Position numbers and translations under genes: made by a program. A stretch of DNA of 64,000 nt from an uncultured Bacillales bacterium (GTDB lineage: Bacteria > Bacillota_I > Bacilli_A > RFN20 > CAG-826), in NCBI GenBank assembly GCA_946409515.1, contig CAMJWS010000001.1, positions 1,557-65,556 of the forward strand, read 5' to 3'. The notes under the pieces are model-generated. The model was given only the letters and a program-made list of their open reading frames with translations, had not been told where the DNA came from and searched no databases. Below, one piece after another: positions 4,372 to 22,522 of this stretch. Numbering within the stretch: position 1 is the first letter of the stretch; each line of letters begins with the position of its first letter.

Positions 4372-4411
4372 CGACATCCTGTATATTCTACAAAATGTCG
4401 ACTTTTTGTGA
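4372..4411 (-). terminator. Rho-independent terminator downstream of tRNA-fMet.
   Basis: Inverted repeat cgacat...atgtcg. On the minus strand it is followed by TTTTTATTT. Confidence 0.45.
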
Positions 4412-4412
4412 T

Positions 4413-4488
4413 TGGTTGCGGAGGCAGGATTTGAACACTGCGACCTCCAGGTTATGGGCCTGACGAGCTACCACTGCTCTACTCCGCG
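4413..4488 (-). tRNA. tRNA-Met (anticodon CAT), initiator-like.
   Basis: The minus-strand read CGCGGAGTAGAGCAGTGGTAGCTCGTCAGGCCCATAACCTGGAGGTCGCAGTGTTCAAATCCTGCCTCCGCAACCA is near-identical in architecture to E. coli/B. subtilis tRNA-fMet. It has the C1·A72 mismatch, a TTCAAAT T-loop and an encoded CCA. The anticodon loop reads CCCATAA, with C rather than U at position 33. Confidence 0.8.
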
Positions 4489-4519
4489 ATCTCGCCCGGA
4501 GTTTAGTCCAGGCAATTGA

Positions 4520-4696
4520 TTACTTGCGATTTTTACGACGAGCGTTTTCGCTTTTCACTTTTCTCTTAAGAGATTTCTTTAAGAAAAATTCTCTCTTACG
4601 GGCTTCTTGGATAGTGCCAGCTTTATTAACTTGTCTTTTGAATCTACGAAGAGCATCATCTAATGTTTCGTTTTCACGAACTGAAGTCTTTGGCAT
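4520..4696 (-). CDS. rpsU: 30S ribosomal protein S21 (bS21).
   Basis: 58 aa: [58 protein letters not shown], with a GGAGG RBS 8 nt upstream. It falls below the 60-aa cutoff of the ORF track. Confidence 0.9.
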
Positions 4697-4771
4697 GTCT
4701 ATTCACCTCCTTGAAGCTTTTCGCAACGTGTCTATTATTACAAAGTAGTCTAACTATTGCAAGTATTATTA

Positions 4772-5410
4772 TTAAATAATTTTCGCACCACTGGATGTGC
4801 CGATGCGGTTAGCACCCGCTTCAACCATGGCAATAAGGTCTTCGTGTGTACGAACACCACCACTGGCTTTAACGCCCATTTCTGGACCAACAGTTTCTCT
4901 CATGAGTTTCACTGCTTCAACAGTGGCACCACCAGTTGAGAAGCCTGTACTTGTTTTAACAAAGTCAGCGCCAGCTTCTTTAGCGGCTTTACAAGCACGA
5001 ACGATTTCATCGTTACTTAATAAGCATGTTTCAATAATGACTTTTAAGATGATATTGTGTCCAACGGCTTGTTTGATTTCTCTGATTTCTTCTCTGACAT
5101 AATCATCATGGCCAGCTTTTAACATACCGACATTGATAACCATGTCAACCTCATCAGCGCCCTCCTTAACAGTGAGAACTGCTTCTTCCACTTTAGTTTT
5201 GGTTAAGTTCATACCAAGAGGGAAACCAATAACGGTGCAGACTTTAACATCACTATCTTCTAAGCACTTCGCGGCTAATGGGACATAAGCAGGATTAACA
5301 CAAACTGACATAAAGTCAAATTGTTTTGCTTCTTCACAGAGTTTAACAATTTGTTCTGGGGAAGCGTCTTGTTTTAATAAAGTATGATCAATAAGTTTAT
5401 TGTATTGCAT
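4772..5410 (-). CDS. deoC: Deoxyribose-phosphate aldolase.
   Basis: Full-length match to the DeoC pattern ([42 protein letters not shown]). Confidence 0.9.
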
Positions 5411-5502
5411 TGTCTATTTGCTCCTTTGCAAGCATTTTATTATAACAAATATTATCGCAAGAAAAAAGACGAGTTTCCTCGCCTTTATTTTATAAAGAAT
5501 TA

Positions 5503-6873
5503 TTATGCTTTTTGTTTCTTAGCTTTTTCAGCATTAAGCACTCTTAGTTCATCAACCCAGTTGGTATCTTTAACTTCACCTTGAGTTAAGCCATCTTTTT
5601 CCATCGCTGCTTTGATGAGTTCTTTACATCTTCTAACTGATAAGCCAGATCTAACTTTGAAGAGTAAAGGCATTTCAGCATAGTTTGGTCTATGGCCAAC
5701 ATCTTCGACTGGTATGGTTGAATCTTTATAGTCTTCTGGAGATAAGGCTAAGTAGACTTTTAATGTTTTACCAACAAGATAAATCTTTACATATCTCTTA
5801 TCTTTTAATCTAAAGGTTTCACCACCTCTAGATAATCTAGCTTTAACACCATAAGAGAGGATTTCATTCTTTAATTCGTTATAGTTAACCTTGGTTTCAG
5901 TTTCCGCGGTAATAATACGCATAAAGAATGGTTGACGTTTACTTCTATTCCAGCCTTCTTCCTCTTCTTCTGGGATAGGTGCTGGAGCAGGTTTCTCTTC
6001 TTTTTGAAGAGGTTTTGGATTATCAAGTTGAGGCCAAACGGTTCTAGCAACTTTCCAGAAATCAATTGAACCATAAATGGCTTTCTTTTCAGGAACTGGC
6101 TTTGGTTCTGGTTTAGGTTCTTCTTTAACTTCTTCTACAACTGGCTCAGGTTCCTTAACTGGTTCTTCCACCACGACTGGAACTGGTTCTGGTTTAGGTT
6201 CTTCTTTTTGAGCCTCATTACCAACGATAATCACTTTGAATGGTTGGTTCTTAATGAGTTCATCTCTCACGATTCTTCTAATGTATTCATCGTCACCTTC
6301 TTCTTCGTAATATTCTTCACGAATAGCTTTAGAAGCATTGAACGCTAGGAAGGAACGAATAACACACCAGAAATAGAAGATAATGGATAAGAGGAAGTAT
6401 AACGCTGTTAAGGCCACCATAACTAATGCAAGGAGCTTTAACGAGGTCACTTCACCATTCATCATGTGCCAGTACATTCTCGCTCCACTTGCTAAAACGA
6501 CATATATTAAGAAACTAATAAATGATAGAGCAATAGCGTGGCCCATAATGCTGGTGTTCTTTTTATCGTTAATGATAATACCGGCAATTAAGAAGATAAC
6601 CCAGCAAATGAATAAGGCGTACAAGAACGCACTTAGTGCAAAGTAAACAATGCTAGATCCACTAGGATATCTAAATAAGACAAGATCTAGTAAGCCATGT
6701 AAGTGGTATTTCATTACCCCTACGAAGCTAGCTAAATCTGCATCACCGGTTTTCTTAGCAAACAATGCTAAGACGATGAAGCACGCTAGGAACGCCACTG
6801 CTACAAATATAGTAGCGGCAAGTAGTCTTTTAAGACCTTTACTTAATTTTGTTTTTGAGTTTTCCATAATCAA
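5503..6873 (-). CDS. Integral membrane protein with a Pro/Glu/Lys-rich linker and an uncharacterised cytoplasmic C-terminal domain; operonic with the giant surface-protein gene.
   Basis: About five predicted TM helices at the N-terminus, then KEEPKPEPVPVVVEEPVKEPEPVVEEVKEEPKPEPKPV low-complexity linker. It lies 12 nt downstream of the 3999-aa gene on the same strand. Confidence 0.5.
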   Translation of the reverse strand: MIMENSKTKLSKGLKRLLAATIFVAVAFLACFIVLALFAKKTGDADLASFVGVMKYHLHGLLDLVLFRYPSGSSIVYFALSAFLYALFICWVIFLIAGIIINDKKNTSIMGHAIALSFISFLIYVVLASGARMYWHMMNGEVTSLKLLALVMVALTALYFLLSIIFYFWCVIRSFLAFNASKAIREEYYEEEGDDEYIRRIVRDELIKNQPFKVIIVGNEAQKEEPKPEPVPVVVEEPVKEPEPVVEEVKEEPKPEPKPVPEKKAIYGSIDFWKVARTVWPQLDNPKPLQKEEKPAPAPIPEEEEEGWNRSKRQPFFMRIITAETETKVNYNELKNEILSYGVKARLSRGGETFRLKDKRYVKIYLVGKTLKVYLALSPEDYKDSTIPVEDVGHRPNYAEMPLLFKVRSGLSVRRCKELIKAAMEKDGLTQGEVKDTNWVDELRVLNAEKAKKQKA

Positions 6874-6885
6874 TTCTCCTTTCCA

Positions 6886-9800
6886 TTAGTTTTGATAAGG
6901 AATTGTGAATCTAGTTATATAAACCAGATAATCGGAAGCGGCTCCAAAACGAGCCTTAATGGCGCTGACTGATGCTGAATCTTCATCGCCTTCGCAATAA
7001 ACTGTTTTTGCTGCTGGAGTACCACCGATAGCAGATACACCAACAGTTACAATAGTATCAGGTAAGTAAATAGTTGAAAGAGAAGAACAATAGCCAAAAG
7101 CCCATGTGCCAATGGTAGTTACGCCCTTAGGAATTAAAATGGATTTTAAAGACTGGCAACGATAGAACGCATAATCACCAACTGTTGTCACGCCAGTCTT
7201 TGGAAGAGTAATGTTCACGATATTTGCGCAACCATCGAATGCATGAGCAGCAATATCACCACCACCAAGAATTGTGACATCAGTTAAATTTTCTGGGATA
7301 AAGTATGGTTGCGTACTGTATGTGGAAGCGCCAAAGATGGAACCAAAGTGACTACCAGCAATACCAACATTTGTGCCAATAAATGGAAGAACGACTTTTT
7401 CCACATTTCTGCAACCATCATATGCGCCAAAGCCAATAGAAGTGACACTAGTTGGAAGTGCAATTGAACGGAAGGATGTACAGTTTATGAAAGCTTGTTC
7501 ACCAATGAAAGCGACACCATTAGGAATAACGACGTCTTCTAATTGAGAACATCCATAGAAAGATCTACTTCCAATTGAGGTTACACTATTTGGAATCGTA
7601 ATGGAGCTTAAGGATGTACAATTTCCGAAAGCTAATTCGCCAATAGAAGTGATACCTTCAGAAAGTACAATCTCTTCGACATTTGAACAGTAATAGAATG
7701 TTCTATCAGCAATGTATTCACCACCACTAATGACAATGGTCTTAAGTGTTAGAGGAATGCTACTATTGAATAAATTGCTAATAGTAACACTACGTGTGTC
7801 CGTTTCGTTGGCATATTTATATGTTGAAGGTAGTTTAAGATATTCTAATGACGGACAACCAGCTAGTGATTTATCTAACCATTCGATGTTACCGGCAAAT
7901 GTCACTGATTTAACATTATTACAGCCTTCAAATGCCCATTCATATAGTTCATAGTTATCGCCTGTGATGATGATTGTCTCAAGACTTGTTGGAATCTTTG
8001 GAGTGTTATCCTTTGTATAATCAACATCAAAGATATAATTCATACGGCAATATGTTGTATTTGAAGCTGGGTTAGAATCATTGATTGAATAGTTTCTTCT
8101 GCCAACAAATGGAATTGATAGAGTTTCAAGACTTGTACAGCCATCTAACATGCCTTGGCCCATTTCAGTAACGGAATTTGGAACTTCAACGCTAACTAAT
8201 GAAGAACAGCCTAAGAACGCTGCACTACCAATAGAGGTAACAGTGTTAGGAATAGCAATTGCCTCTAAGGAAGAACAATTCTTAAATGCGGCAGTTGGAA
8301 TTGCAGTAAATGATACATTATTTGGAAGTAGAGCATACTTAAGTGAAGTACAACCTTCAAATGCACTATAGCCAATTGAGGTAACGCTATCTGGGATAAC
8401 GATTGATTCTAATGAAGAACAATTGAGGAATGCATTATAAGGAATTGCAGTAAGTGTAGATGGAAGTACAACGTTCTTTAAACCGCCGCAATCTTTGAAA
8501 GCATTATATCCAATGGTCTCAAGTGTTGATGATAGTTTAGCGTATTCTAATGAAGTACAACCTTCAAATGCACTATAGCCAATTGAGGTAACGCTATCTG
8601 GGATAACGATTGATTCTAATGAGACACAACCATAGAACGCATTGTTATCAATAGCGGTAATACCTTGTGGTAAGGCAACTGTTTCTAAGGATGCACAGTT
8701 CCAGAATGTTCGATAATTAATCGTCGACATTGAGCCTGTAAAGATGATTGTTTTAACACTTCCACATCCTTCAAAAGTATTTTTATAGATTTGATCATCA
8801 CCAACAACAGTGATGCTTTCAAGAACAGGAGAAACTCCAGTCCAGAACAAATCTTTGAAAACTTTGTCTGAAAGAGCTTTAGAAGGAACAGTCATATGTT
8901 TGAGATTTGTGCAACCATCAAATGTCCAAATGCTAATATTGGCGTTTGGACAGTCAATGACTACTGATTCAAGCATTGAACAGTTTCTAAAAGAATTTTG
9001 GACAATATTGGATTCAGAAGCGTTTGTAATGATAACGTTTCTTAATGAAGCAGGGATGAAATAATAATAATCATTTTGACCATAGGTGAATTGGTAAACA
9101 CCATCACCTTCATATGTTGCTCCGCTTTCATTATTATGTACATCAAAGCCAAAGATGAAGCCAAACATTCTTTCATTTGTATAGTTGCTACTATTGAAGC
9201 GACCAACGTGTGGAATTGATAATGTTTCTAAAGATGAACATCCTTTAAACGCTCCTTCTCTAATTTGAATAACACTGTTTGGAATATAAGCACTCTTCAA
9301 AGAAGTACAATTTAAGAAGGTATCTGTGGAGATAATCTCAACACCATTTGGAACAACAATAGATTCTAACGCTGTGCATCCACTGAATGTTTCGCTACCA
9401 AGATTAGTAAGAGTCGCTGGAAGAACGATGTTCTTAAGAGCAGTACAATCTTTAAAAGCTTGATTATTGATTTCGGTCACGCCAGATGGAAGAACAATAC
9501 TTTCCATTGAAATACAATTCATGAATGAACCAGCACCAATGGTTGTAATAGGTTCTGGAATTACTACGCCTTTTAAAGAAATACAGTTTGCAAACATACT
9601 TCCGTTAAGAGCGGTAAAGGAAGCATTATTTGGAAGCATGACATAAGTCAATGAACTACAGCCATTGAAAACACCCCACATGCTAGTAACGCTGTTTGGA
9701 ATAACGACACTCACTAATGAGGTACAATTCATGAATGCGCCGTTTCCGATTGTAACCACACTATTTGGTATAGAAATATTTGTTAAAGCGCTGCAATTTG

Positions 9801-12800
9801 CAAAAGCACTACCATTGATACTGGTAACTGTATTTGGAATTGATACAGTTGTTAACGAAGTACAAGAATCAAATGCACATAAACCAATACTTTGAACATT
9901 ATTTGGGAAAGCAACCGATTGTAAAGAGAGACATCCATAGAAGCAATATCTTGGCAAATCAGTAAATTTGTTCATAAATGAAACCGAAACTACTTGATCG
10001 CAATAAGCAAAGTTACCTCCATAAGAATTAAGAGTAATGTTTTCACCAATGACAATATTCTTTACTCTTACATAGCCAAATGCGGAATGATAAATCGTGC
10101 CATTACCGATTAAATAGAATGTATCCAAGTAAGTTGTTGTTGTTTGACTGCCATGGTTGCCTAGAACTATATTCATTGAATTAAAGCTGTATAAGGTATC
10201 AGGCATACCTGGTTCATAAGTTCCACCAAAATATGGAGCGGATAAATATTTTAATGAGTCGCAGTTTCTAAGTGCATCTTCGCCAATAGAAGTGACGCTA
10301 GCAGGGATAACTAGAGATACTATACTAGAACAGCCTTCAAAACCACTTTCGCCAATAGAAGTGACTGATGTTGGAATAGAAACACTAACAAGGCCAGAAC
10401 AGGCTTCGAAAGCGGAATCGCCAATAGAAGTGACACCATGTGGAATGTTCAAAGCGCTTAAAGAAGCACATCCTTCGAAAGCACTATCGCCAATTGTCTT
10501 TAAACTTGTTGGCATACTGATGTTTCTTAACGCTGGGCAATTCGAAAAAGCGGAATCTTCTATTGCAGTGATGCTATCAGGTAAAACAATAGTTCTTAAC
10601 GATGTGAAACCTTCGAAAGTACCTTGAGAAATCTTTGTTAAATTACCTTCAATGATAATGTTTTCAACATGCTTTGCACTATAGCCATGACCTGGTGCTA
10701 CAATCTCAGTAACATTCTTACCAACAATGATGTTTTTAGCATTGTAATTGCACTTCAAAGCACCACTACCTGTAATGTATAAATATTCTAAATGATATAG
10801 ACGTTCCCAAGGTGTTGGTGAGGTTCCAGATTCATAGAGATAAGTAAATGCACTACAATCAATAGGAATAGATAATGACTTGAGCGCCATACAATAACTA
10901 TTAAATTCATAACCAATAGATGTAACACTAGTTGGAATGACTAAAGTTTCAAGCGAATCACAGCTATAGAAAGCACGTTCACCAACTGTAAGAAGGCCAT
11001 TTGGTAAAAGCACCTCTTTTATATTATCAGCATCTTCAAAAGCACTATTGCCTATTTCTTTTGTCCCACCAATAATTTTGACAGATTTAATATTTTGGCA
11101 TCCAGCGAATGCTTTTTCACCGATTTTTTGATCACCAGTAATAACGATATTAGCTAATGTTGATGGTAGTAATCCATTTTGCACATCAGCGCTATTGGCG
11201 TCAAAGAAGTATCCAATGTAACCGTTATTGCCACTACCATCACCTAAGTATGGAACAACTAAAGTTTCAAGAGGTATTGCTTCTTTAGAATAATCGTATA
11301 AATAAACATCATAATCGGTAAAGTTGGTTTCATATGGATTGTTAAATTTTACCCAAAGATTTTTTCCGGCATACCAATCACCAGTATCGCCAATAAGTTC
11401 GCCATAGCCTGCTTCTTCAACAGTTTCTTCACTTAAGTAGAAGCTGTAATTATATAGTTCATCGTACCACGCATCCCATTCTTCCCAATAAGCATAAATG
11501 ACATACCATACTTGTTCAGGATCGTAATTATACTCAGTAGATGAATCATTTTCGTAAGGATTTATAGTAAGAATAAAGTCGTATTGACGTGGGTCGCCTT
11601 GAAGATCATAAGGGCTTGGATAATCATAGCCGCTCCACACGTGGATAAGTAATCTTACACTATCTTTAGGAACTATTTGCCATTTAACACCACCATCTAA
11701 AGAAGCTAAGATGCCTTGGCCAATTGATGTGACACTATTAGGAATAATAAAGGTTTTTAATCCGATGCAGCCTCTAAAGGCATAATCACCAATTGATAAG
11801 AGGCCTTCGTTAAGCGAAACACTGGTGAGGTTTGAACACTTTTCAAAAGCGCTTTCACCAATTGATTTAACATTTTCAGGTACCGCAAATGTTTTTAAAG
11901 CTAAGCAGCTATCAAACGCATGATTACCAATAGAAGCAATACTATCGTTAAGGGCAATGATTTCAATGCTTGAACAATATGCAAAAGCATAATCACCTAA
12001 GGTTTCACCACCGACGATAACAGCTTTCAAAGTCTCTGGCACTGTATAAATGTTGTCTTCAGGATCATTTGAACCAAATAGAGTTCCAATACTTCCTGCT
12101 AAGGAAGGCAAGACTAAAGATTGAATATTAGAAGTACTATCAAGCTTATAGAGTTCGGTTTCATAAGTATCTTCGTTGTAGTAGTAATAATAATCGCCTA
12201 TAGAATAATCATTAATAGATGGGAAATCTCCATAGCCCATATAGTTATCAATATCACTGTAGTCACTATATTCTTTAATCTTAGTCCAGGTGTCATCGCT
12301 AGTCTTACGATAAAGAGTATAAGTAGTATCAGAATCGAGCCACCAGTCACCAACATCACCATCATATTCAGATGGTTCGGAGGATGATTCAGTAATGCTA
12401 TCCGCTAAAAGAACCCACTGAATTTTTCCAGTAAGGATGCCAAAGCCAATATTAGTGACTGATTCTGGAATAGCAAGCGAAGTAAAGGATACGCATTTTT
12501 CAAAAGCATAATCACCAATTGTGGTAACACTATTTGGAATATTAATGCCTTTCAAGCTTTCACAACCACTGAACGCTCTCGCGCCGATAGCTGTTAATGT
12601 ATCTGGAAGGATGACTGTTTCAATGTGTGAGCAGTTAGCGAATGCACCACTCTTTAATTCAGTCACATTAGAAAGAACAACTGTCTTTAATGATGCAGGA
12701 GCTAAATTATTCCATGAACCATGGCTATGTTTGCTACCAGCAGCGATAAAGCCATAACCAAATGAATTAAATGCATCGGCGATATTGCCTTGTGGTAAGC

Positions 12801-15800
12801 CCCATCTATCGCTACTATTCTTAATCCAGAATGTACCAGTAGTTACGTTGATATAATAGTCTCTTTGAGCGGTTTCATATTGGCTTCTATTAGATGTGCC
12901 ATAATCACAAGAAGCAACACTGCCGTCTTCGTTGGTTAAAATGAGTTGACTAATCCATTCGCCATTAATCTTTCTATAGACTGTAGAAATATTAGCATCA
13001 AGATATAAGTCATTATCGTTACCGATACTATTGGATGGTTTTTGACCACTAGATAATTTGCCAGCGTAAACCCTACTACCAATAACTGTAGCGCTACCAC
13101 CGACGAACGGAAGAGTAATGCTATTAAGATTAGATCTAAATTCGACTAATAAATCACCATCATCTGAATTGATAAATAATTTGCCAGATTCAATAGAAGT
13201 TGGGGAAATGACATCATAGAATAATTCGAAACCGACAATTGTGTCTCTTAATTCCCACTTATTGCCTTCTTCATAACGAACCCAGATTTCACCATAGTGT
13301 TCAGCATCAGTGAATACGATAATATCACCAATTTCACCATCAACTGGTAAATCGTGAGTGCTTGTTACTTGAATAATAGCGTATTCGGTTCTTTCTGGAG
13401 AATATTTATCCCATAAGTTACCTTTTCTTGTTAAACCAGTAGAGAAAGCACCTCTACCAATATCTTTAACAGAATCTGGAATGATAATTGATTCTAGAGA
13501 ATCACAACCAGTGAAAGCAAATTCACTGATGTTTTCTAAACCTTCGTTTAAAACGATATATTTAAGTGAAGTACAACCAAAGAACGCTCTTGTGCCTAAA
13601 TCTTTTAAGTTAGAAGGCATCGCAATAGCTTGTAATGATGTACAGCCTTCAAATGTTTGAACTTCAATTTTTTCTAAGTTTTCTGAAAGAGTGAGATATT
13701 TAAGTGAAATACAGCCTTCAAAAGCCATTCTACCAACAGAAGTAACACTATTTGGCATTACAAATGATTCTAAACCTGTGCAGTGATAGAAAGCTTGGAT
13801 ACCAATTGATTTTAAGTTAGCAGGTAAATTGATAGACTTTAATGATGTACAACCTCTAAATGCTAAATCACCAATCTCTGTAATTGTTTCCGCTAAGGCA
13901 ACAATTTTCAATGATTTGAGATCAGCAAACATTTTATTATTAACTTTAGTAATACCATGTCCTAAATAAACATTTTCCAAAGCATCACAATCTAGGAATA
14001 AGTTATCACCAAATTGTTTATCCACGCCGTCTTGGAAGACGATTGATTTAAGATGGCTATTTTCGCGGAATGCTCTGTCACCAATAAATGTAACAGAAGA
14101 TGGAATTACGAATGTTGAGCAACCTGTGTTCGCTAAAGCACCCGCTTCAATTCTTGTTAATCCTTGAGGAAGGTTGAGTTCAGTTAATTGTGTTGTTTGG
14201 TAGAAGCAAGCTCTTCCTAATACTTTTAGTGTGCTTGGAAGTTTAACTATAGTTAATGTGGTACAGAAATGGAATGCTTCTTGGCCGATTTTTGTAACCC
14301 CTTCAGGAATGACTACACTGATAATTTGGTTGCTAGCAAAAGCGAATTCAGGAATTGTGTCCCTATTAGCACCATTACCACCAGTTAAGATGATAGACTT
14401 AACATTACTATGGCCTTCAAAGAGATAATCTAATGAACCATCAGTTCCAGAAAGAGAATCTCTACTCTTGCCTATGAATGGTAATGTCAATTCAATAACA
14501 TCAGAATCTTTAAATACGCCTTTGCCTAAGTATTCCACACTATTAGGAACAACAAAGGATGTCATTTCGGTATCACCGAAAGCATAATCACTAATTTCTC
14601 TAACGTTATTTGGTAAGACGATATTTTCAGCATCACAACCATAGAAAGCATAGGAAGGAATACAGTCTTTATTATCACCATTAGCGCCAGTCAAAATAAT
14701 AGTGTCTAAATGACTTGGAATTCTGCTACTTTGGTTTTCTTTATTATTAGCGCCAAAAATATAGCCTAAGTAGTAATTGGATTCAGGAGCAGGATTGGCT
14801 AAATTCAAAATACTGCCCGCTCCCAACCAAGAATCACCGTAATAAACATAGATCTCACCAGTTTCATAGTTAAAGAAACGGCCACTACTTGGTAATTCTG
14901 TGCCAATTACAACGGCACCACTAGCAAGAATGTTAAGCGTTTCATCATTCTTATCTTCAGTCAAATCGAGCCATTGACCATTAGTAAACTGCCAATAATG
15001 CTTTGTAGCAAGATCAAAATATGTTGTGGTTGTTGGATTGACTGTATTTGGTTCACCGTTACCATAAGAATAAGTTAATGGAGCAATGTAACCAGAATCT
15101 GGACCAATATATGGAAGTGTGATTGATTTCAAATCATCACATTCTGCAAATGCACCAAAGCCAATTGATGATGGATTACCACTGATAATGATTGTTTCAA
15201 TACCATCGCATCCATTCATTGCATTAGCATCAATTGCATAATCGCCTGTAATTGTTACTGTCTTAAGAGATGATGGAAGAGCGGAATCGTTGTCGTCATA
15301 GCTATCACCGCCGAAGACAAATGATAAATATGTAGCATCAGTTACATAATTTGAAAGAACAGTAGCCATTTGTGGATTATCAACAAGATTCATATAGAAA
15401 TTCCATGTATCATTTTGGTATCCATAGAGATTGCCTGTATCGATATCCATCACAACATCACCGTTATCGGCTGAGCCTGTTGGAGCACCATTAACAAGCA
15501 TGCTTGGTGGAAGATTCATTTCTGTTTTATTCCATACACCATTCGCTTTAGCCCAGATATAACCTGATTCTGTATCTAAATATACATTATTTAAAGGATT
15601 TGTTGTGGTTGGTTCACCTGCGCCATAGCAGTAAGCCCAGCTAACTGAAGCCTCTGCGGAACCACCGATAAATGGAGCGGAATATGATTCTAAGGAATCA
15701 CAATCTTCAAAGGCGCCTTTACCAATTGATTTAATAGTGCTTGGCAAAATAATACCTTTTAAAGAAGAACAGTTAGCAAAAGCACCAGCGCCAATTGCTT

Positions 15801-18800
15801 CTAAGCCTTGAGTTGGGGCTACTTTTCTAAATGTAGAGATACCTGGATTAGCGGCACCTTCTTCAATATAGACATAAACAACGTTAGAACAATCTTTAAA
15901 AGCGTCTTGGCCGATTGATTTGACGTTACTTGGAATAACAACTGATGTTAAACCAGTACAGCCTTCAAACGCGCTGTTTCCGATTGATTTAACGGTATGT
16001 GGAAGAGTGAATGAAGTGATTCCTGTTTGATCTTTGAATACATCATCACCAATACCAATAATTAATTGATCGTTATAGAATTCTGGGATGACGATATCGC
16101 CACTTGTGATAGAGCAAGCTGTAATGATGCCATCTTCGACAACGAATTGTCCCCATCTAGCGGTTAATGTTATGTCTTTTGTCACAACATCTTTAGAGAA
16201 GTCCCAACGTGTGCCCTCACTTGTGTACCAACCTTGGAAGAAATAATCATCTTTAGTTGGGGCTGTTGGATTAACAATGGTAAAGCCTTCTAAAGCTTCT
16301 TCATATGAAGCAACTGCAGTACCACCATCACTATCAAATGTGACTGTATATTTATTAGGGGAATAATGTAAATTACCTTCTGGATTCCAGACTAAATTAC
16401 CTTCACCATCATCAGTTAAAACATAGTAGTTCCATGTATCTAAATCGATATATGAATCGCCTTCAATACCTGCAACAGCAGCAAGAGTTTCATCTTGTGG
16501 AGTGACTGGATCATCTTCAACCGCACGTGGGTCACGGTGTCCTGTCCTCACAGATGTACCGTCTTTACCATTAGTGACTGTGAATGTATCAACATGTGGA
16601 TTTGCGGTTGTGCTATCACTATAAGTGATTTCATAAACATCGATTAAATCGTTAGTTTCTTTTAAAGTTACGCTGACAATGGAAACACCATCTTGACCAG
16701 CATCACCTTTAAATGAGCCTTTATCAGTCCAACCGTCATCGGCTTTAACATAGAGTTTCCATGTTTCGACGTCGATATAGTTATCTCCGACATTAGCTAA
16801 GGTTTCATTTGTTGGTGCACCTGTACCAACAATAATCTTATTTCCATCTTGGCCATTAGTGACTGTAAATGTTGATGTTGTGGTATCAGAGTATGTAATT
16901 GTGTAGGTATCCACTAAGCCTTCAGTGCCTGTTTTGACAACACTTGAAATGGAGACACCATTAGTACCGTTTTGGCCTGCAAAGTTACCTTTATGGACCC
17001 AAACACCATTTTCTTTCGCGTAGTAGTCCCATGTTGTGGTATTGATATATGAATCGCCATTATTACCTAAAGTATTTTCTGGTGCAGTTGTGCCATATCT
17101 TAAAGAAGCACCAATTGCACCACCACCAGCTGGTTCACCCCAGCCAGTATCAGTCATTGTGTAATAATTACCTGTATCTAAATCGATATATGTGTCACCA
17201 ACATTACCTGGAACGTTACCAGTTGTTGGATCACCATGACCAACGTTAACAGAAGCACCTTGTGCGCCTGCTGCGCCATCATCACCTTTAATATTACCAG
17301 CGAGGTTCCATGTACCATTTTCTTTAACATAGAAATCCCAGTTAGCTAAGTTGATGTAGGAATCGCCATTTTTACCTGTTGTAGCAGCTGGTTCACCATT
17401 ACCAGTTAAAACTGATGTAGCGGCAGCGCCTTCACCAATCTTTTCCCAGCCGTTAGTTTCATCGTATGTATAGAGATAGCCTGTATCTAAGTCAATATAG
17501 GTATCACCTTGTTTACCTTCGACACTATTTGTTGTTGGATCACCATGGTTAAGGCTGACAGAAGCACCAGCAGGACCTTGTGGACCTGTAGCGTTAACGC
17601 CAGTATCGGTTTCGCCGACATACCAGTGACCATTTGCACCAATATGTGGAATGGCAAAATTACTTGTGGAGTCTGGTGTGCCCCATTCACCGTTATCGCC
17701 CATGTGATACACGTCGCCTGTACTTAAATCAATATAAGTATCGCCCGCGCTACCTGGAACGTTACCTGTGGTTGGATCACCACTACCAGTGAGGATGGAA
17801 GTACCATCTTGACCAGCTTGACCTTGTGGGCCAGTAGCGGCAACACCGGTATCGGTATCACCAATAAACCAGTTACCATTAGCACCGATATGAGGTAAAG
17901 CAAAATTACTATTGGCTTCTGGAGCGCCCCATTCGCCGTTATCGCCCATGTGATAGATATCACCTGTGCTTAAATCAATATATGTATCGCCAGGATTACC
18001 TGTAGCGCCACTTGTGGTTGGATCACCATTGCCCGCACAAACGGAAGTACCATTATCACCAGCTTGACCAGCAATATTGCCAATCTTGACCCAAGCACCA
18101 CTATCCATGACATAGTAGTCCCAGTTCAATAAGTTAATATATGAATCACCATTTTGTCCTAAGTCAGCGGCAGGGACACCTTCACCAGTGTGTACACTAT
18201 AGCCAGCTTGACCAGTAGGGCCTTGTGGACCTTGAGCGTGAGTGCCTGTATCAACACCATCGACAAACCAGTTACCATTTTCACCAACTGTGATTTCTGG
18301 TGTACGGCCATCTGTGCCTGGAATGCCTTGACCTTGGGCACCGTTTTCACCATTTGTGACCAAGAATGTTGATGTTGTATTGTCAGTGTATGTAATTGTA
18401 TAAACGTCTATTAGGCCTTGAGATTCGGTCTTTTCAACGGAAACAATACCACGGCCTTCTGGACCTTGTGGGCCTTCTGGACCTTGAGGGCCTTGTGGGC
18501 CAACAGCATCTAAATCTGTGACTGTACCGTTAATGACCCATTTACCGTTTTCGATGGTAATTGTTGGAGTAACACCATCCGCGCCAGGGAAACCTTGAGC
18601 GCCAGGTTGACCATCCGAACCATTTGTAACGATGAAGATCGAACTTGTTCCATCTGTGTAATAGATTGTATATTCATCGATTAGACCATATGTGTTAGTC
18701 TTTTCGACTTTATCAATTGATTTTAGAGTCTGGCCCTCTTGACCTTCTCCTCCTGGTATTTGTGAGTTTGGAAGATCTTTTTTAAGAGCATGAACCGCAA

Positions 18801-18885
18801 TTGCTGCGCCCGCTATCGAAAGAGTGAGGGTTGTTGTCGTCACAATAATAGCGATTGTTCTGAATAGTGATGAATGTTTTGCCAT
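6886..18885 (-). CDS. Giant (3999-aa) cell-surface protein: N-terminal signal anchor, collagen-like Gly-X-Y segments alternating with beta-rich modules, a Listeria-Bacteroides repeat, and a very long array of BspA-type leucine-rich repeats.
   Basis: N-terminus MAKHSSLFRTIAIIVTTTTLTLSIAGAAIA. Collagen-like runs include GPQGPQGPEGPQGPEG, GAQGFPGADG and GPQGPTGQAG. Repeated GDTYIDLSTGDIYHMGDNGEWG modules are present. YTVTFDSDGGTAVAS...FQGWYTSEGTRWDFSKDVVTKDITLTARW fits the Flg_new/Listeria-Bacteroides repeat. More than 50 LRR_5-type units occur (e.g. VVIPEGVTKIGQEAFHFCTTLTIVKLPSTLKVLGRACF). Confidence 0.85.
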   Translation of the reverse strand: MAKHSSLFRTIAIIVTTTTLTLSIAGAAIAVHALKKDLPNSQIPGGEGQEGQTLKSIDKVEKTNTYGLIDEYTIYYTDGTSSIFIVTNGSDGQPGAQGFPGADGVTPTITIENGKWVINGTVTDLDAVGPQGPQGPEGPQGPEGRGIVSVEKTESQGLIDVYTITYTDNTTSTFLVTNGENGAQGQGIPGTDGRTPEITVGENGNWFVDGVDTGTHAQGPQGPTGQAGYSVHTGEGVPAADLGQNGDSYINLLNWDYYVMDSGAWVKIGNIAGQAGDNGTSVCAGNGDPTTSGATGNPGDTYIDLSTGDIYHMGDNGEWGAPEANSNFALPHIGANGNWFIGDTDTGVAATGPQGQAGQDGTSILTGSGDPTTGNVPGSAGDTYIDLSTGDVYHMGDNGEWGTPDSTSNFAIPHIGANGHWYVGETDTGVNATGPQGPAGASVSLNHGDPTTNSVEGKQGDTYIDLDTGYLYTYDETNGWEKIGEGAAATSVLTGNGEPAATTGKNGDSYINLANWDFYVKENGTWNLAGNIKGDDGAAGAQGASVNVGHGDPTTGNVPGNVGDTYIDLDTGNYYTMTDTGWGEPAGGGAIGASLRYGTTAPENTLGNNGDSYINTTTWDYYAKENGVWVHKGNFAGQNGTNGVSISSVVKTGTEGLVDTYTITYSDTTTSTFTVTNGQDGNKIIVGTGAPTNETLANVGDNYIDVETWKLYVKADDGWTDKGSFKGDAGQDGVSIVSVTLKETNDLIDVYEITYSDSTTANPHVDTFTVTNGKDGTSVRTGHRDPRAVEDDPVTPQDETLAAVAGIEGDSYIDLDTWNYYVLTDDGEGNLVWNPEGNLHYSPNKYTVTFDSDGGTAVASYEEALEGFTIVNPTAPTKDDYFFQGWYTSEGTRWDFSKDVVTKDITLTARWGQFVVEDGIITACSITSGDIVIPEFYNDQLIIGIGDDVFKDQTGITSFTLPHTVKSIGNSAFEGCTGLTSVVIPSNVKSIGQDAFKDCSNVVYVYIEEGAANPGISTFRKVAPTQGLEAIGAGAFANCSSLKGIILPSTIKSIGKGAFEDCDSLESYSAPFIGGSAEASVSWAYCYGAGEPTTTNPLNNVYLDTESGYIWAKANGVWNKTEMNLPPSMLVNGAPTGSADNGDVVMDIDTGNLYGYQNDTWNFYMNLVDNPQMATVLSNYVTDATYLSFVFGGDSYDDNDSALPSSLKTVTITGDYAIDANAMNGCDGIETIIISGNPSSIGFGAFAECDDLKSITLPYIGPDSGYIAPLTYSYGNGEPNTVNPTTTTYFDLATKHYWQFTNGQWLDLTEDKNDETLNILASGAVVIGTELPSSGRFFNYETGEIYVYYGDSWLGAGSILNLANPAPESNYYLGYIFGANNKENQSSRIPSHLDTIILTGANGDNKDCIPSYAFYGCDAENIVLPNNVREISDYAFGDTEMTSFVVPNSVEYLGKGVFKDSDVIELTLPFIGKSRDSLSGTDGSLDYLFEGHSNVKSIILTGGNGANRDTIPEFAFASNQIISVVIPEGVTKIGQEAFHFCTTLTIVKLPSTLKVLGRACFYQTTQLTELNLPQGLTRIEAGALANTGCSTFVIPSSVTFIGDRAFRENSHLKSIVFQDGVDKQFGDNLFLDCDALENVYLGHGITKVNNKMFADLKSLKIVALAETITEIGDLAFRGCTSLKSINLPANLKSIGIQAFYHCTGLESFVMPNSVTSVGRMAFEGCISLKYLTLSENLEKIEVQTFEGCTSLQAIAMPSNLKDLGTRAFFGCTSLKYIVLNEGLENISEFAFTGCDSLESIIIPDSVKDIGRGAFSTGLTRKGNLWDKYSPERTEYAIIQVTSTHDLPVDGEIGDIIVFTDAEHYGEIWVRYEEGNKWELRDTIVGFELFYDVISPTSIESGKLFINSDDGDLLVEFRSNLNSITLPFVGGSATVIGSRVYAGKLSSGQKPSNSIGNDNDLYLDANISTVYRKINGEWISQLILTNEDGSVASCDYGTSNRSQYETAQRDYYINVTTGTFWIKNSSDRWGLPQGNIADAFNSFGYGFIAAGSKHSHGSWNNLAPASLKTVVLSNVTELKSGAFANCSHIETVILPDTLTAIGARAFSGCESLKGINIPNSVTTIGDYAFEKCVSFTSLAIPESVTNIGFGILTGKIQWVLLADSITESSSEPSEYDGDVGDWWLDSDTTYTLYRKTSDDTWTKIKEYSDYSDIDNYMGYGDFPSINDYSIGDYYYYYNEDTYETELYKLDSTSNIQSLVLPSLAGSIGTLFGSNDPEDNIYTVPETLKAVIVGGETLGDYAFAYCSSIEIIALNDSIASIGNHAFDSCLALKTFAVPENVKSIGESAFEKCSNLTSVSLNEGLLSIGDYAFRGCIGLKTFIIPNSVTSIGQGILASLDGGVKWQIVPKDSVRLLIHVWSGYDYPSPYDLQGDPRQYDFILTINPYENDSSTEYNYDPEQVWYVIYAYWEEWDAWYDELYNYSFYLSEETVEEAGYGELIGDTGDWYAGKNLWVKFNNPYETNFTDYDVYLYDYSKEAIPLETLVVPYLGDGSGNNGYIGYFFDANSADVQNGLLPSTLANIVITGDQKIGEKAFAGCQNIKSVKIIGGTKEIGNSAFEDADNIKEVLLPNGLLTVGERAFYSCDSLETLVIPTSVTSIGYEFNSYCMALKSLSIPIDCSAFTYLYESGTSPTPWERLYHLEYLYITGSGALKCNYNAKNIIVGKNVTEIVAPGHGYSAKHVENIIIEGNLTKISQGTFEGFTSLRTIVLPDSITAIEDSAFSNCPALRNISMPTSLKTIGDSAFEGCASLSALNIPHGVTSIGDSAFEACSGLVSVSIPTSVTSIGESGFEGCSSIVSLVIPASVTSIGEDALRNCDSLKYLSAPYFGGTYEPGMPDTLYSFNSMNIVLGNHGSQTTTTYLDTFYLIGNGTIYHSAFGYVRVKNIVIGENITLNSYGGNFAYCDQVVSVSFMNKFTDLPRYCFYGCLSLQSVAFPNNVQSIGLCAFDSCTSLTTVSIPNTVTSINGSAFANCSALTNISIPNSVVTIGNGAFMNCTSLVSVVIPNSVTSMWGVFNGCSSLTYVMLPNNASFTALNGSMFANCISLKGVVIPEPITTIGAGSFMNCISMESIVLPSGVTEINNQAFKDCTALKNIVLPATLTNLGSETFSGCTALESIVVPNGVEIISTDTFLNCTSLKSAYIPNSVIQIREGAFKGCSSLETLSIPHVGRFNSSNYTNERMFGFIFGFDVHNNESGATYEGDGVYQFTYGQNDYYYFIPASLRNVIITNASESNIVQNSFRNCSMLESVVIDCPNANISIWTFDGCTNLKHMTVPSKALSDKVFKDLFWTGVSPVLESITVVGDDQIYKNTFEGCGSVKTIIFTGSMSTINYRTFWNCASLETVALPQGITAIDNNAFYGCVSLESIVIPDSVTSIGYSAFEGCTSLEYAKLSSTLETIGYNAFKDCGGLKNVVLPSTLTAIPYNAFLNCSSLESIVIPDSVTSIGYSAFEGCTSLKYALLPNNVSFTAIPTAAFKNCSSLEAIAIPNTVTSIGSAAFLGCSSLVSVEVPNSVTEMGQGMLDGCTSLETLSIPFVGRRNYSINDSNPASNTTYCRMNYIFDVDYTKDNTPKIPTSLETIIITGDNYELYEWAFEGCNNVKSVTFAGNIEWLDKSLAGCPSLEYLKLPSTYKYANETDTRSVTISNLFNSSIPLTLKTIVISGGEYIADRTFYYCSNVEEIVLSEGITSIGELAFGNCTSLSSITIPNSVTSIGSRSFYGCSQLEDVVIPNGVAFIGEQAFINCTSFRSIALPTSVTSIGFGAYDGCRNVEKVVLPFIGTNVGIAGSHFGSIFGASTYSTQPYFIPENLTDVTILGGGDIAAHAFDGCANIVNITLPKTGVTTVGDYAFYRCQSLKSILIPKGVTTIGTWAFGYCSSLSTIYLPDTIVTVGVSAIGGTPAAKTVYCEGDEDSASVSAIKARFGAASDYLVYITRFTIPYQN
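17400..18300 (-). repeat. Near-identical ~240-bp tandem coding repeats inside the giant gene.
   Basis: For example 17650-17760 and 17890-18000 share the ...ccccattc(a/g)ccgttatcgcccatgtgata(c/g)a...cttaaatcaatata(a/t)gtatcgcc blocks. Confidence 0.6.
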
Positions 18886-18975
18886 ACTATTTTTGCTATC
18901 TAGCCTTACCCGGACTATATGCTAGATAGAGTGTCTTTCTCCGGGTTTAATATTTACGTGCAAGCACGGGAATGT
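18886..18975 (-). promoter_or_regulatory. Structured 5' leader with nested hairpins overlapping the putative RBS of the giant gene.
   Basis: The mRNA-sense read is ...CCCGGAGAAAGACACUCUAUCUAGCAUAUAGUCCGGGUAAGGCUAGAUAGCAAAAAUAG-AUG. CUAUCUAG pairs with CUAGAUAG, and CCCGGA pairs with UCCGGG, enclosing the GGGUAAGG Shine-Dalgarno-like element. A further CGUGCUUGCACG palindrome lies upstream. Confidence 0.3.
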
Positions 18976-19529
18976 GCAAAGTTGCGAAATCAGTTTCCCA
19001 TAACAAGTGCTAAATAACTGCTAAATTAAGAATAAAAAGAACGTCAAAAACGTACCCCATAGTCCACCATTCATCAGTTATGTATTTTTTCTACACCTTA
19101 ACTATGACACATATTGCCTAGAATTGAAAGACGATGAATAACATTGTCTTATAATCATTACTCATGATATTTCCTATTTAGATTTTATTTATCTTTTCAC
19201 AGTCACAGCAACGATTGAACATGTGGTCTTGTTAAGACAAATCTACACTTACTCATTTCTTTTAAATGGTAAACCTATTCTTTTGGGAATTGTTACACTT
19301 GTCACTTATTGTTTGAAATCGTTAAAAAGACTGCTCTCATCACTCAATATTGGTGATATAATAAAATGTTAAAAAGAAAGCAATAACACGAGATAAGTTT
19401 ATACCCTCGATATATCAAAAGGCCCACGATGGGGCCTTGTTTTTAAAAGATTTATGATGTTTTTGTTTTAACTTTCTATGGCGTACTTACTCGGCAGTTG
19501 AACAACCGATGATTTACGTTAAATTTACT

Positions 19530-19560
19530 AAAAAGGCCCCTTATTCAGGAGCCTTTATTA
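19530..19560 (-). terminator. Rho-independent terminator of rpmF.
   Basis: The minus-strand read is aaaggctcctgaataaggggccttttt: a 6-bp stem with one mismatch, then a T-run. Confidence 0.5.
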
Positions 19561-22210: not shown

Positions 22211-22232
22211 AATCAGTTTAAATTCATCTTTA

Positions 22233-22268
22233 CTAAAAAACAAGGCGCGGCCTTGTAATGTCGCGCCC
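22233..22268 (-). terminator. GC-rich Rho-independent terminator ending the rsmE-mtaB operon.
   Basis: The minus-strand read is gggcgcgacattacaaggccgcgcc followed by ttgtttttt. It is an unusually GC-rich hairpin in an AT-rich region. Confidence 0.5.
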
Positions 22269-22522
22269 AAGGAGATGTTTCTTTATAGTAGTGTGTGCTT
22301 ATTCTCCCTTTTTTGCACCATTGTATATGGAAACTAGTATGAATCTCCTCGCCCTATGGACACATATCTCTTCATTATTCGTGTAAAAGATATCAGGTAT
22401 TTGTGTCTGTTCTAATAGGAACACCATTATTATTCACTTCGATATGCTAAAAAAGTGCTAAAGAAAAGAATACATGGAAACTTTTTTATTTTGATAGTTT
22501 AAAAAGAGCCGCTTTATAGCAA

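Follow-up and report, generated by a model that had tools for sequence, protein, structure and literature searches.

A 3999-residue BspA-type LRR surface protein and a conserved downstream membrane protein encoded at one locus of an uncultured rumen Bacilli bacterium

The window, the whole 64,000-nt stretch of DNA analysed here, belongs to an uncultured rumen Bacilli bacterium; related MAGs are labelled Erysipelotrichaceae. On its reverse strand lie a giant surface-protein gene and, directly downstream, the gene of a membrane protein that we call the partner. The features of the locus are:

5465..5486 (-), intrinsic-terminator-like hairpin with a T-run, beginning 17 nt past the partner stop codon
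5503..6867 (-), partner gene, 454 aa, ATG start at 6867
5506..5952 (-), region coding for the partner C-terminal domain (CTD, residues 306-454), from the AF2 model and orthologue comparison
6868..6885 (-), spacer of 18 nt from the giant's stop codon to the partner start, containing the Shine-Dalgarno (SD) site GGAAAGGAG
6886..18885 (-), giant surface-protein gene, a single 12,000-nt ORF of 3999 aa
6886..12911 (-), giant gene, C-terminal half, exchanged for other sequence in the closest relative (blastn against locus L033)
7072..16011 (-), BspA-type LRR region, giant residues 959-3938 (unit HMM, Pfam LRR_5)
8327..8660 (-), best internal repeat of the giant gene (family D3), two 127-nt copies at 83% identity
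16159..16350 (-), Listeria-Bacteroides repeat (Flg_new), giant residues 846-909 (PF09479, TIGR02543)
16366..18720 (-), N-terminal stalk of repeated modules, giant residues 56-840 (motif positions, PHROG matches)
17566-18057 (-), 246-bp tandem duplication, 1.9-2 copies (TRF; copies 78-80% identical)
18778..18885 (-), hydrophobic segment, giant residues 1-36, MAKHSSLFRTIAIIVTTTTLTLSIAGAAIAVHALKK (hydropathy scan)
19417..19555 (-), two terminator-like hairpins after rpmF (L32), from sequence reading, one also in the terminator scan

The spacer between the two genes carries an SD site and no terminator, and terminators flank both genes, so that the sequence fits co-transcription of giant and partner as a two-gene operon, in agreement with the first-pass annotation. 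The hairpins upstream of the giant's promoter region, at about 19555-19530 and 19438-19417, would isolate that region from upstream transcription. An Rfam search of the window returned tRNAs only, with no match in the 700-bp leader. A His_kinase (PF06580) and Response_reg pair adjoins the module at 20029-22270, and no phage genes were found near the giant in its chromosomal neighbourhood.

The giant protein has a mass of about 429 kDa and a pI of 4.3. Its sole hydrophobic segment in a hydropathy scan spans residues 7-35, and residues 1-36 probably form an uncleaved signal-anchor. This N-terminal sequence is kept in the related giants L035, L056b, P0374 and P0379. There is no Cys in residues 1-40 and hence no lipobox of a bacterial lipoprotein, unlike homologous modules in other taxa, which do carry lipobox or lipoprotein signals. 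The C-terminus lacks a sortase LPXTG signal and any further hydrophobic segment; the single LPxTG string of the protein (residue 3894) sits within an LRR unit.

The stalk that follows the anchor is built from four "YGLIDxYTITYTDG", four "IGxNGNWxxG" and ten "GDxYIDLxT" modules and five short G-X-Y runs. The GDTYIDLSTGD module had been described as phage-tail-fibre-like, and this description is borne out by the 10 occurrences of GDxY(I/L)(D/N) between residues 246 and 830 and by matches of the N-terminal 850 aa to PHROG tail-fibre families (e.g. phrog_3904 at 6.6e-10). The collagen-like character assigned to the G-X-Y runs did not hold up: the five stretches comprise 4-6 triplets each, the longest being 6, and Pfam Collagen (PF01391) gave no match to the whole giant at E<=0.01 or to its N-terminal 850 aa at E<=10. 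A true collagen reading was rejected on both counts. Some homologues of the stalk region carry precomputed PF19079 (CFSR) and PF01391 (Collagen) matches; a literature search on CFSR and on RFN20/rumen LRR adhesins found nothing relevant.

Beyond the stalk, the Flg_new repeat that had been read from the sequence was recovered by both models, PF09479 (E=6.1e-15, 55.5 bits against a cut-off of 27) and TIGR02543 (25.8 against a cut-off of 20.95, E 1e-5). The LRR_5 profile (PF13306) covered 21 stretches at E=0, with a score of 1410.8 bits where the cut-off is 27.7. The domain scan proposed at first pass thus returned LRR_5 and Flg_new but not Collagen. With a home-made unit HMM, which found 0 units in five shuffles, we counted 51 LRR units when a score of >=5 was required and 59 when >=2 sufficed, in agreement with the earlier figure of more than 50. 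The units are about 23 aa each and grouped in 17 blocks, interrupted by non-LRR inserts, some with degenerate GDxY-type modules. The product of this single ORF is therefore the mosaic BspA-LRR surface protein that had been described.

The partner starts at ATG 6867 with AGGAG 8 nt upstream, and its orthologues likewise start MENSK or MEKKK. A TTG at 6873, which would give 456 aa, was rejected as too close to the SD site. The earlier account of a membrane protein with a PE-rich linker and an unrecognised cytoplasmic domain stands, but at 454 rather than 456 aa. Residues 1-180 form a 4-TM domain (helices from the AF2 model), residues 181-305 an acidic linker (pI 4.5; 125 aa, of which 20 are P and 28 are E) and residues 306-454 the CTD; by the positive-inside rule the protein is predicted to be N-in, C-in. 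The partner matched nothing in Pfam, NCBIfam or PHROG, Foldseek with the full-length model gave nothing significant for the TM domain, and an exact look-up of the protein in public assemblies returned no record. Across 10 adjacent-clade orthologues, identity to the window's partner is 35-84% in the TM domain and 73-96% in the CTD. Among orthologues the TM domain is 35-49% identical; it thus diverges quickly, as does the giant (29-37% identity).

The AF2 model of the CTD reached pLDDT 94.8 and pTM 0.88. At the sequence level the CTD has no match in Pfam, NCBIfam or PHROG, and a profile search of PDB sequences gave just chance antibody matches. Structure searches gave weak matches: the best in the PDB was 2fki (E=0.011, TMq 0.47), and in BFVD we found a match at E=8e-5 and TM 0.55; a DUF5655 phage protein matched at E=3e-4 and TMq 0.55. 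The modelled fold may be YjbR/DUF1801-like. The CTD family comprises 3527 representatives (about 3500 clusters at 50% identity). Among the top 150, 38 are fusions with an N-terminal region of >400 aa, one or more TMs, an acidic linker and 2-3 CTDs. A hydrophobic segment is also present at the N-terminus of 29 of these 38. MBE6136211.1, encoded in an Erysipelotrichaceae MAG, belongs to the fusions; it is 4721 aa long and carries Beta_helix_3 and Flg_new. No LRR_5 units were found in the fused representatives; Flg_new alone is common to them and the giant. In P0189, P0211, P0213, P0230 and P0318 the domain PF00828 (uL15/L18e/L27A) lies C-terminal to the CTD. The window's partner has no such fusion, ending 15 residues past the CTD helix with no Pfam match.

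Lack of conservation of the partner beside LRR-protein genes in other genomes had been named beforehand as what would count against the pairing. We found a giant LRR gene 13-33 nt upstream of a partner orthologue in 14 of 15 other loci (L001-L003, L033-L035, L038-L040, L052-L054 and, twice, L056), with AGGAG-bearing spacers comparable to the 18 nt of the window. The flanks of the paired loci fall into at least 6 different contexts (deoC/S21, HK-RR/L20, Mbeg1/ATP-grasp, rubrerythrin, carbonic anhydrase/TIR, Rce1/Na-Pi, AbiE). On the single contig of L056 there are two giant-partner modules, the partners of which are alike in the CTD only (78% identity). In a CTD tree the giant-adjacent partners form one clade, apart from paralogues beside CNNM genes. 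This clade, with its 4-TM domain, acidic linker and CTD, is a definition made in this analysis; the window's partner belongs to it by its grouping in the tree and its position <=33 nt downstream of a giant.

The partner had also been called dedicated to the giant. This agrees with the paired loci but is qualified by L037, where an orthologue with its own promoter region lies behind a terminator and 315 bp of intergenic DNA and has no giant. It is qualified too by the paralogous clade of the same architecture, which many Bacilli keep beside CNNM/CBS and tdk genes rather than LRR genes, so that this architecture has a function that does not depend on giants. As a control, 10 unrelated metagenome LRR_5 loci were inspected and 0/10 had a CTD gene nearby. 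These loci came from a metagenome scan with the Flg_new/first-LRR segment, which returned only unrelated smaller LRR_5 proteins. A search with the N-terminal 330 aa of the giant brought up nothing longer than 578 aa, largely lipoproteins of other taxa, and the giants compared here were thus all sampled through their partners. When the N-terminal anchor of the giant and the TM domain of the partner were compared by mirror tree, a crude test at n=6 pairs, the result was r=-0.32, which gives no support.

Related strains differ by the replacement of kilobases in the LRR region. The window and L033 share 93% nucleotide identity over the partner gene and deoC and 89% over 12912-15756, and between these, over 6886-12911, there is no blastn match at E<=1e-20. 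Relative to L001, the window is 83% identical over 4411-6309 (deoC, the CTD and part of the linker); the similarity breaks inside the partner gene and the sequence upstream is unalignable. Length variation had instead been expected from near-identical repeats of ~240 bp at 17.4-18.3 kb. The duplication found there, which encodes two GDTYIDLSTGD and HIGANGNW modules, is 246 bp x 1.9, and slippage at it is unlikely because its copies are too diverged, being identical over no more than 20 nt at a stretch. The 127-nt copies in the LRR region share a 72-nt exact match at 8344 and 8551, 207 nt (3 LRR units) apart. To judge from these alignments, strains vary because recombination exchanges large parts of the LRR region, rather than through slippage at internal repeats.

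We propose that the giant and the partner are a cognate functional pair encoded in a two-gene operon, a split form of the fused architecture, and give this proposal an even chance of being correct. The giant would be exported by Sec and stay membrane-bound through the one hydrophobic helix at its N-terminus, which is conserved. Outward from there would follow the tail-fibre-like stalk, a single Flg_new domain and, as the binding surface, about 55 LRR units of BspA type. The fast-evolving 4-TM domain of the partner may associate with the adhesin in the membrane, and its highly conserved CTD may contact a conserved intracellular component. Jointly the two proteins would reproduce the order of signal peptide, giant ectodomain, TM, acidic linker and CTD. 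The export or anchoring role first suggested for the partner is conjectural; the giant already bears its own membrane helix and an external anchor is not obviously needed. A wider reading, which we consider doubtful, is that the CTD is an undescribed, widespread Firmicutes cytoplasmic tail domain that couples giant adhesins, fused or split, to an intracellular machine, the TM domain of a split partner being specific to its giant. The CTD would, for instance, tether the translating ribosome or mRNA (cf. the fusions to a uL15-like domain), or else a structure that bears force or sets position.

It is conceivable, if rather unlikely, that the two proteins have no physical partnership and that the partner, a membrane protein of general function, arose as a duplicate of the housekeeping gene for 4-TM domain, linker and CTD that lies beside CNNM transporters. 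It would accompany the giant gene only because its highly conserved CTD DNA serves as the downstream homology arm when strains swap adhesin cassettes by recombination. The break between the window and L001 within the partner gene agrees with this, as do a CTD 93% identical against 39% for the TM domain, the retention of the partner in L037 and the CNNM-adjacent paralogues, which show the architecture working without giants. A passive arm would, however, leave unexplained why an intact SD-coupled ORF of conserved 4-TM architecture is present in 14 of the 15 loci with their differing flanks, why the duplicated module of L056 has its own diverged partner and why giant surface proteins elsewhere carry this CTD on the same polypeptide.

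Two further alternatives assign the CTD a specific activity. The 73 invariant columns in 20 CTD orthologues suggest a conserved cytoplasmic ligand, and the partner could be an export or biogenesis factor whose basic CTD (pI 9.7) recruits the ribosome, mRNA or a Sec component for co-translational translocation; CTD proteins ending in a uL15-like domain, of which the family has several, would act alike. YjbR, one of the closest fold families, is a DNA-binding family by NCBI naming. We hold this role to be improbable: the pI of the CTD varies within the family (4.4 to 9.8), soluble multi-copy CTD proteins without a TM segment account for 50 of the top 150 representatives, the fold matches are weak and the uL15-like domain is missing from the window's partner. 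The neighbouring histidine kinase and response regulator would fit a signalling or regulatory protein that senses the state of the adhesin in the membrane and passes it inward through the CTD, possibly together with this pair. The two-component genes also adjoin the module in L035, on the opposite side, but are missing from the other loci examined, and the CTD has no recognisable signalling domain, which makes such a role very improbable.

Host-associated microbes of gut and rumen characteristically carry giant BspA/Flg_new adhesins, and to our knowledge the making and holding of 400-kDa surface proteins in monoderm bacteria is poorly understood. The partner is a specific candidate for this: it is conserved and unannotated, and its CTD recurs in thousands of Firmicutes proteins, including the tails of giant proteins. 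If giant and partner are a cognate pair, this would give a large family of CTD domains its first functional context. The observed pattern, a hypervariable adhesin and partner TM domain beside a conserved CTD, fits an exchange of cassettes between strains that changes the specificity of binding to host or prey. Coupling through the CTD, if true, would add a new principle to how monoderm bacteria make megadalton-scale adhesins or couple them from the inside out. Should the two proteins turn out not to be partners, what is left is one more large LRR adhesin.

As with the BspA-like LRR proteins (Tannerella forsythia BspA; Trichomonas, 'Ca. Mycoplasma girerdii'), the giant is built on LRR_5 repeats and is predicted to be surface located; known members serve adhesion. 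PMC4206474 and PMC2843621 deal with BspA-like genes of host-associated mycoplasmas and trichomonads. The giant differs from BspA proteins in its far larger size and number of units, in the tail-fibre-like stalk of its N-terminal part and in having a membrane helix at the N-terminus instead of a T9SS or lipoprotein signal, and also in its conserved downstream membrane partner, which is not described for BspA in the literature searched. The best NCBIfam match of the giant is the streptococcal LRR adhesin HupY/LrrG (NF047961; 471 bits, 16 LRR stretches), far under the cut-off of 1250 bits, and the likeness is at the repeat level only. A match to the Mycoplasma mobile gliding leg protein Gli349 (NF045861) was likewise rejected (210.7 against a required 1750 bits, in short repeat-level stretches).

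The G-X-Y, IGxNGNW and GDxYID modules are common to the giant and to phage tail fibres and collagen-like minor tail proteins (PHROG 3904, 6049, 1806), from which the giant is set apart by its short G-X-Y runs and a chromosomal context without phage genes. The CTD model resembles the YjbR/DUF1801 (YdhG)/DUF5655 fold group in its topology of helix, five-strand sheet and helix, with TM-scores of only about 0.5 and no sequence-level match; those families have no known mechanism. The fused giants such as MBE6136211.1, themselves unannotated, differ from the window's pair in forming one polypeptide with a beta-helix/Flg_new rather than an LRR_5 ectodomain, 2-3 CTDs and often a uL15-like C-terminus. 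They have in common with the pair the CTD family, an acidic linker after the TM and a Flg_new-containing ectodomain, and they come from the same broad lineage.

The window has an ordinary chromosomal setting, that of a low-GC (~36%) Bacilli genome, with rpmF, rsmE, a MiaB-like radical-SAM gene, deoC, tRNAs, ABC transporters and a GGDEF protein among its genes; the public sequences closest to it come from rumen MAGs that carry the label Bacilli, Bacillales or Erysipelotrichaceae. The gene for the giant LRR surface protein is followed, across a spacer reading TAA-TGGAAAGGAGAATTGATT-ATG, by the gene for a membrane protein, here called the partner:

18885 to 6886, (-) strand: giant gene, a single unbroken ORF of 3999 aa
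5503..6867, (-) strand: partner gene, the ORF directly after the giant at a very short gap, 454 aa
5486-5465: stem-loop with a T-run, beginning 17 nt past the partner stop codon

The partner's Shine-Dalgarno sequence is spaced 8 nt from the ATG at 6867 but only 2 nt from the TTG picked by the ORF finder, and partner orthologues start MENSK or MEKKK; we therefore place the partner at the coordinates listed. Between rpmF and the giant gene stand two terminator-like hairpins. From the Shine-Dalgarno sequence in the spacer and the flanking terminator-like hairpins, we infer that the giant and partner genes form one delimited two-gene transcription unit. The partner's Shine-Dalgarno sequence is strong, and the giant's ATG has no clear one nearby (18886-18945 (-), …TAAGGCTAGATAGCAAAAATAGT-ATG). 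The giant's leader is ~500 nt from the last upstream terminator to the gene, and an Rfam search of it gave no match.

The partner as first called, a 456-aa ORF, has 752 unnamed homologues. We surveyed the context of partner orthologues whose transmembrane (TM) domain (residues 1-180) is 35%-84% identical to that of the window.

Giants encoded directly upstream of partner orthologues in related loci
L001, GTDB genome: at least 3323 aa, cut by locus edge
L002, GTDB genome: at least 3327 aa, cut by locus edge
L003, GTDB genome: at least 2034 aa, cut by locus edge
L033, metagenome contig: 4526 aa
L034, metagenome contig: 3820 aa
L035, metagenome contig: 2360 aa
L038, metagenome contig: 2516 aa
L039, metagenome contig: at least 2031 aa
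L040, metagenome contig: at least 980 aa
L052, metagenome contig: 3092 aa
L053, metagenome contig: 2441 aa
L054, metagenome contig: 4227 aa
L056, metagenome contig: 3383+1314 aa

The first-pass annotation had named as its refuting condition that the membrane protein is not conserved beside LRR-protein genes in other genomes; the pairing withstands this check, being present in L001-L003 and 10 metagenome loci with differing flanks. In all tabulated loci only 13-33 nt separate the end of the giant from the start of the partner, and the junctions read contain AGGAG or a close variant. The 2360-aa protein of L035 lacks a precomputed Pfam record, but its sequence, when read, has the N-terminus, modules and LRRs of the window giant. 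Flanking genes vary by locus (deoC/S21, HK-RR/L20, Mbeg1/ATP-grasp, rubrerythrin, carbonic anhydrase/TIR/MACPF, Rce1/Na-Pi, AbiE), so simple inherited synteny cannot account for the pairing. None of ten unrelated LRR_5 loci of other organisms (0/10) has a gene for the partner's C-terminal domain (CTD, residues 306-454) nearby; the pairing is therefore a trait of this lineage's giants, not of LRR_5 proteins generally. On the single contig of L056 there are two giant-partner modules; the second pairs a 2246-aa giant with a partner of its own, which follows after 17 nt. The CTDs of the two partners are 78% identical, and their TM domains have no BLASTP-detectable similarity. These tandem modules (L056 1-21389) have an AbiEi/AbiEii toxin-antitoxin pair between them, and the first giant seems to be broken into two ORFs (3383 and 1314 aa). 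In L039, TIR_2, MACPF and AIPR domain genes that look defence-related lie directly downstream of the module (7459-17386). A histidine kinase (His_kinase PF06580) and response regulator pair adjoins the module in the window (20029-22270 (-)) and in L035 (11485-13669), with 69% nt identity and on opposite sides of the module. The partner had also been called dedicated to its giant. It is paired in the tabulated loci, but L037, which shares with L038 a left flank of an SMC-like gene and a 398/408-aa gene, has a partner orthologue and no giant; there the partner orthologue comes after a terminator-like hairpin and 315 bp of intergenic sequence (L037 9687-10000).

As a protein, the giant is of a known and ordinary kind, though an extreme case of it. 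Pfam LRR_5 matches it at E=0 in 21 stretches, and residues 846-909 match a single Flg_new domain. Scanning with an HMM made from the giant's 23-residue units gives 51 LRR units with scores >=5, or 59 when the threshold is >=2; they fall into 17 blocks over residues 959-3938, and five shuffled copies have none. Four types of short module make up the mosaic at residues 56-840:

'YGLIDxYTITYTDG...TVTNG' module: 4 copies
'IGxNGNWxxGxxDTG' module: 4 copies
'GDxYIDLxTxxxY' module: 10 copies
G-X-Y runs: 5, each of 4-6 triplets

This N-terminal region resembles PHROG tail-fibre families (e.g. phrog_3904 at 6.6e-10), and Pfam Collagen has no match to it even at E<=10; 'tail-fibre-like' is therefore a fair label. 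Of the mosaic first described as collagen-like/BspA-LRR, the LRR part and the tail-fibre-like modules stand, and 'collagen-like' overstates such short G-X-Y runs. HupY/LrrG (471 bits; NCBIfam cut-off 1250) and Gli349 (211 bits; cut-off 1750) resemble the giant at the repeat level only, below family membership. The sole hydrophobic segment is residues 7-35, within an N-terminal helix (MAKKSSLFKT..T....ALTLSVA.G) kept in related giants. Whereas homologous modules of other taxa stand behind ordinary lipoprotein signals, this giant has the conserved helix and no lipobox, and we read the helix as a predicted uncleaved signal-anchor. Sortase anchoring was rejected, the lone LPKTG string lying inside an LRR unit without a membrane-spanning tail after it.

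Near-identical ~240-bp repeats had been thought to enable length variation; this did not hold for the repeat found:

17566-18057: tandem repeat, 246 bp x 1.9 copies, 78-80% identity, longest exact run 20 nt

This is one module pair duplicated long ago rather than an array prone to slippage. Elsewhere in the giant gene, two 72-nt copies at 8344 and 8551, three LRR units apart, make up its best exact repeat. The variation seen between strains is of another form: L033, the closest relative, has 93% nt identity to the window over partner and deoC and 89% over 12912-15756 of the giant gene, with no detectable nt match for the 6 kb coding the giant's C-terminal half. The deoC protein of L001 is 95% identical to that of the window, its giant only 37%, and the break in similarity lies within the partner gene. 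In L052 and L053 one and the same partner protein, P0063, stands after giants that differ (3092 aa and 2441 aa, respectively); as called, both giants lack the N-terminal anchor and may be truncated or pseudogenised.

An AlphaFold model of the partner places four membrane helices in residues 11-175; the Pro/Glu-rich linker that follows is disordered, and the C-terminal domain is compact. Because the N-terminus and the TM2-TM3 loop are both basic, the positive-inside rule would place both termini in the cytoplasm. The linker (residues 181-305, window 5953-6327 (-)) carries a short conserved motif, 'FWxxAR(E/T)VWPQLDNPKPLP', predicted helical at 271-278 where the rest is disordered, in most orthologues; four aligned proteins lack it (P0106, P0108, P0111, P0120). 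Modelled alone from the C-terminal 150 residues with 51 diverse homologues, the CTD (pLDDT 94.8, pTM 0.88) folds as helix, five-strand sheet, helix. Its sequence has no match in Pfam, NCBIfam, PHROGs or PDB. The best structural matches are weak and fold-level: E. coli YjbR (2fki; E=0.011, TMq 0.47), VP1028, proteins of the YdhG/DUF1801 type, and a DUF5655 protein from a phage (E=3e-4, TMq 0.55).

Searched with a CTD profile, a set of 1.84 billion cluster representatives yields 3527 proteins at E<=1e-3, of which 2265 reach E<=1e-30; the CTD is present in one to seven copies per protein. Among the top 150, 50 have no TM segment, 62 have nothing but TM segments ahead of the CTD, and 38 have an N-terminal region >400 aa, then one to three TM helices, then CTDs. 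Most of these large fusions (29/38) also have an N-terminal hydrophobic segment, and the examples read have a basic stop-transfer sequence and an acidic linker ahead of the CTDs. Two scanned with Pfam, one of them MBE6136211.1 (a 4721-aa hypothetical protein of an Erysipelotrichaceae MAG), have a Beta_helix_3 and Flg_new ectodomain and PF00828 (uL15/L27A-type) at the extreme C-terminus; LRR_5 units are absent from the large fusions. In very large surface proteins of Firmicutes the CTD recurs as a cytoplasmic tail, and the fusions are class-level Rosetta-stone evidence. Whereas they are one polypeptide, the window operon looks like that design split in two. Five family members (P0189, P0211, P0213, P0230, P0318) have a C-terminal domain homologous to the C-terminal part of uL15 (PF00828).

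MAGs that carry the partner also encode a paralogue with the partner's layout, a multi-TM domain, a Pro/Glu or coiled linker and then the CTD, and in many Bacilli this partner-like gene has a conserved place beside tdk and genes for CNNM/CBS transporters. The CTD tree groups the giant-adjacent proteins in a single clade, apart from the CNNM-adjacent paralogues; the partner is therefore a lineage-specific duplicate of an older gene. Giant-adjacent orthologues have 73-96% identity to the window's CTD and 35-49% to its TM domain (84% for the closest strain); the TM domain therefore evolves fast, like the giant, and the CTD is nearly constant. The two closest CNNM-adjacent paralogues have 36-42% identity to the window's TM domain, and giant-adjacent orthologues do no better, the closest strain excepted.

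We give about an even chance to the giant being a membrane-anchored adhesin and the downstream protein its cognate membrane partner: the giant would sit at the membrane, and the partner would contribute the conserved cytoplasmic tail. The divergence pattern fits a membrane interface that is variable and specific to the giant, coupled to a cytoplasmic one that stays constant. It also fits relaxed constraint plus recombination breakpoints in conserved CTD DNA, and a six-pair mirror-tree comparison did not separate the two. The main rival is a non-functional linkage in which CTD DNA serves as a recombination arm, which we consider unlikely. That the CTD binds the ribosome or nucleic acid is conceivable at a distinctly lower probability: uL15-like domains are fused to CTD proteins and the window's own CTD has a basic pI, but CTD pI spans 4.4 to 9.8 across the family. 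A signalling role for the partner, linked to the nearby kinase-regulator pair, is a minor alternative; the pair is absent from the remaining related loci. New and testable are the conserved, duplicable pairing of the giant with an unannotated membrane protein and its tie to a large undescribed cytoplasmic-tail domain family.

Elsewhere in the window, a GIY-YIG/NUMOD homing-endonuclease-like ORF (131-1372 (-)) has a 4-nt overlap with a 676-aa ORF (1369-3399 (-)) that carries ~10 'NGQxAxCIAYRxxxDIDVQFEDGTIVEHR' repeats around a nuclease-like core, 'EIDIWIPSLKVGVEYDGxxWH'. With the tRNA gene just upstream (4416-4488 (-)), the pair may be a small mobile island. Two further proteins are likely surface or secreted: a 675-aa CotH-domain protein (26085-28112 (+)) and a 1007-aa protein with Big_3/Big_2 and clostripain (C11) peptidase domains (60363-63386 (-)).
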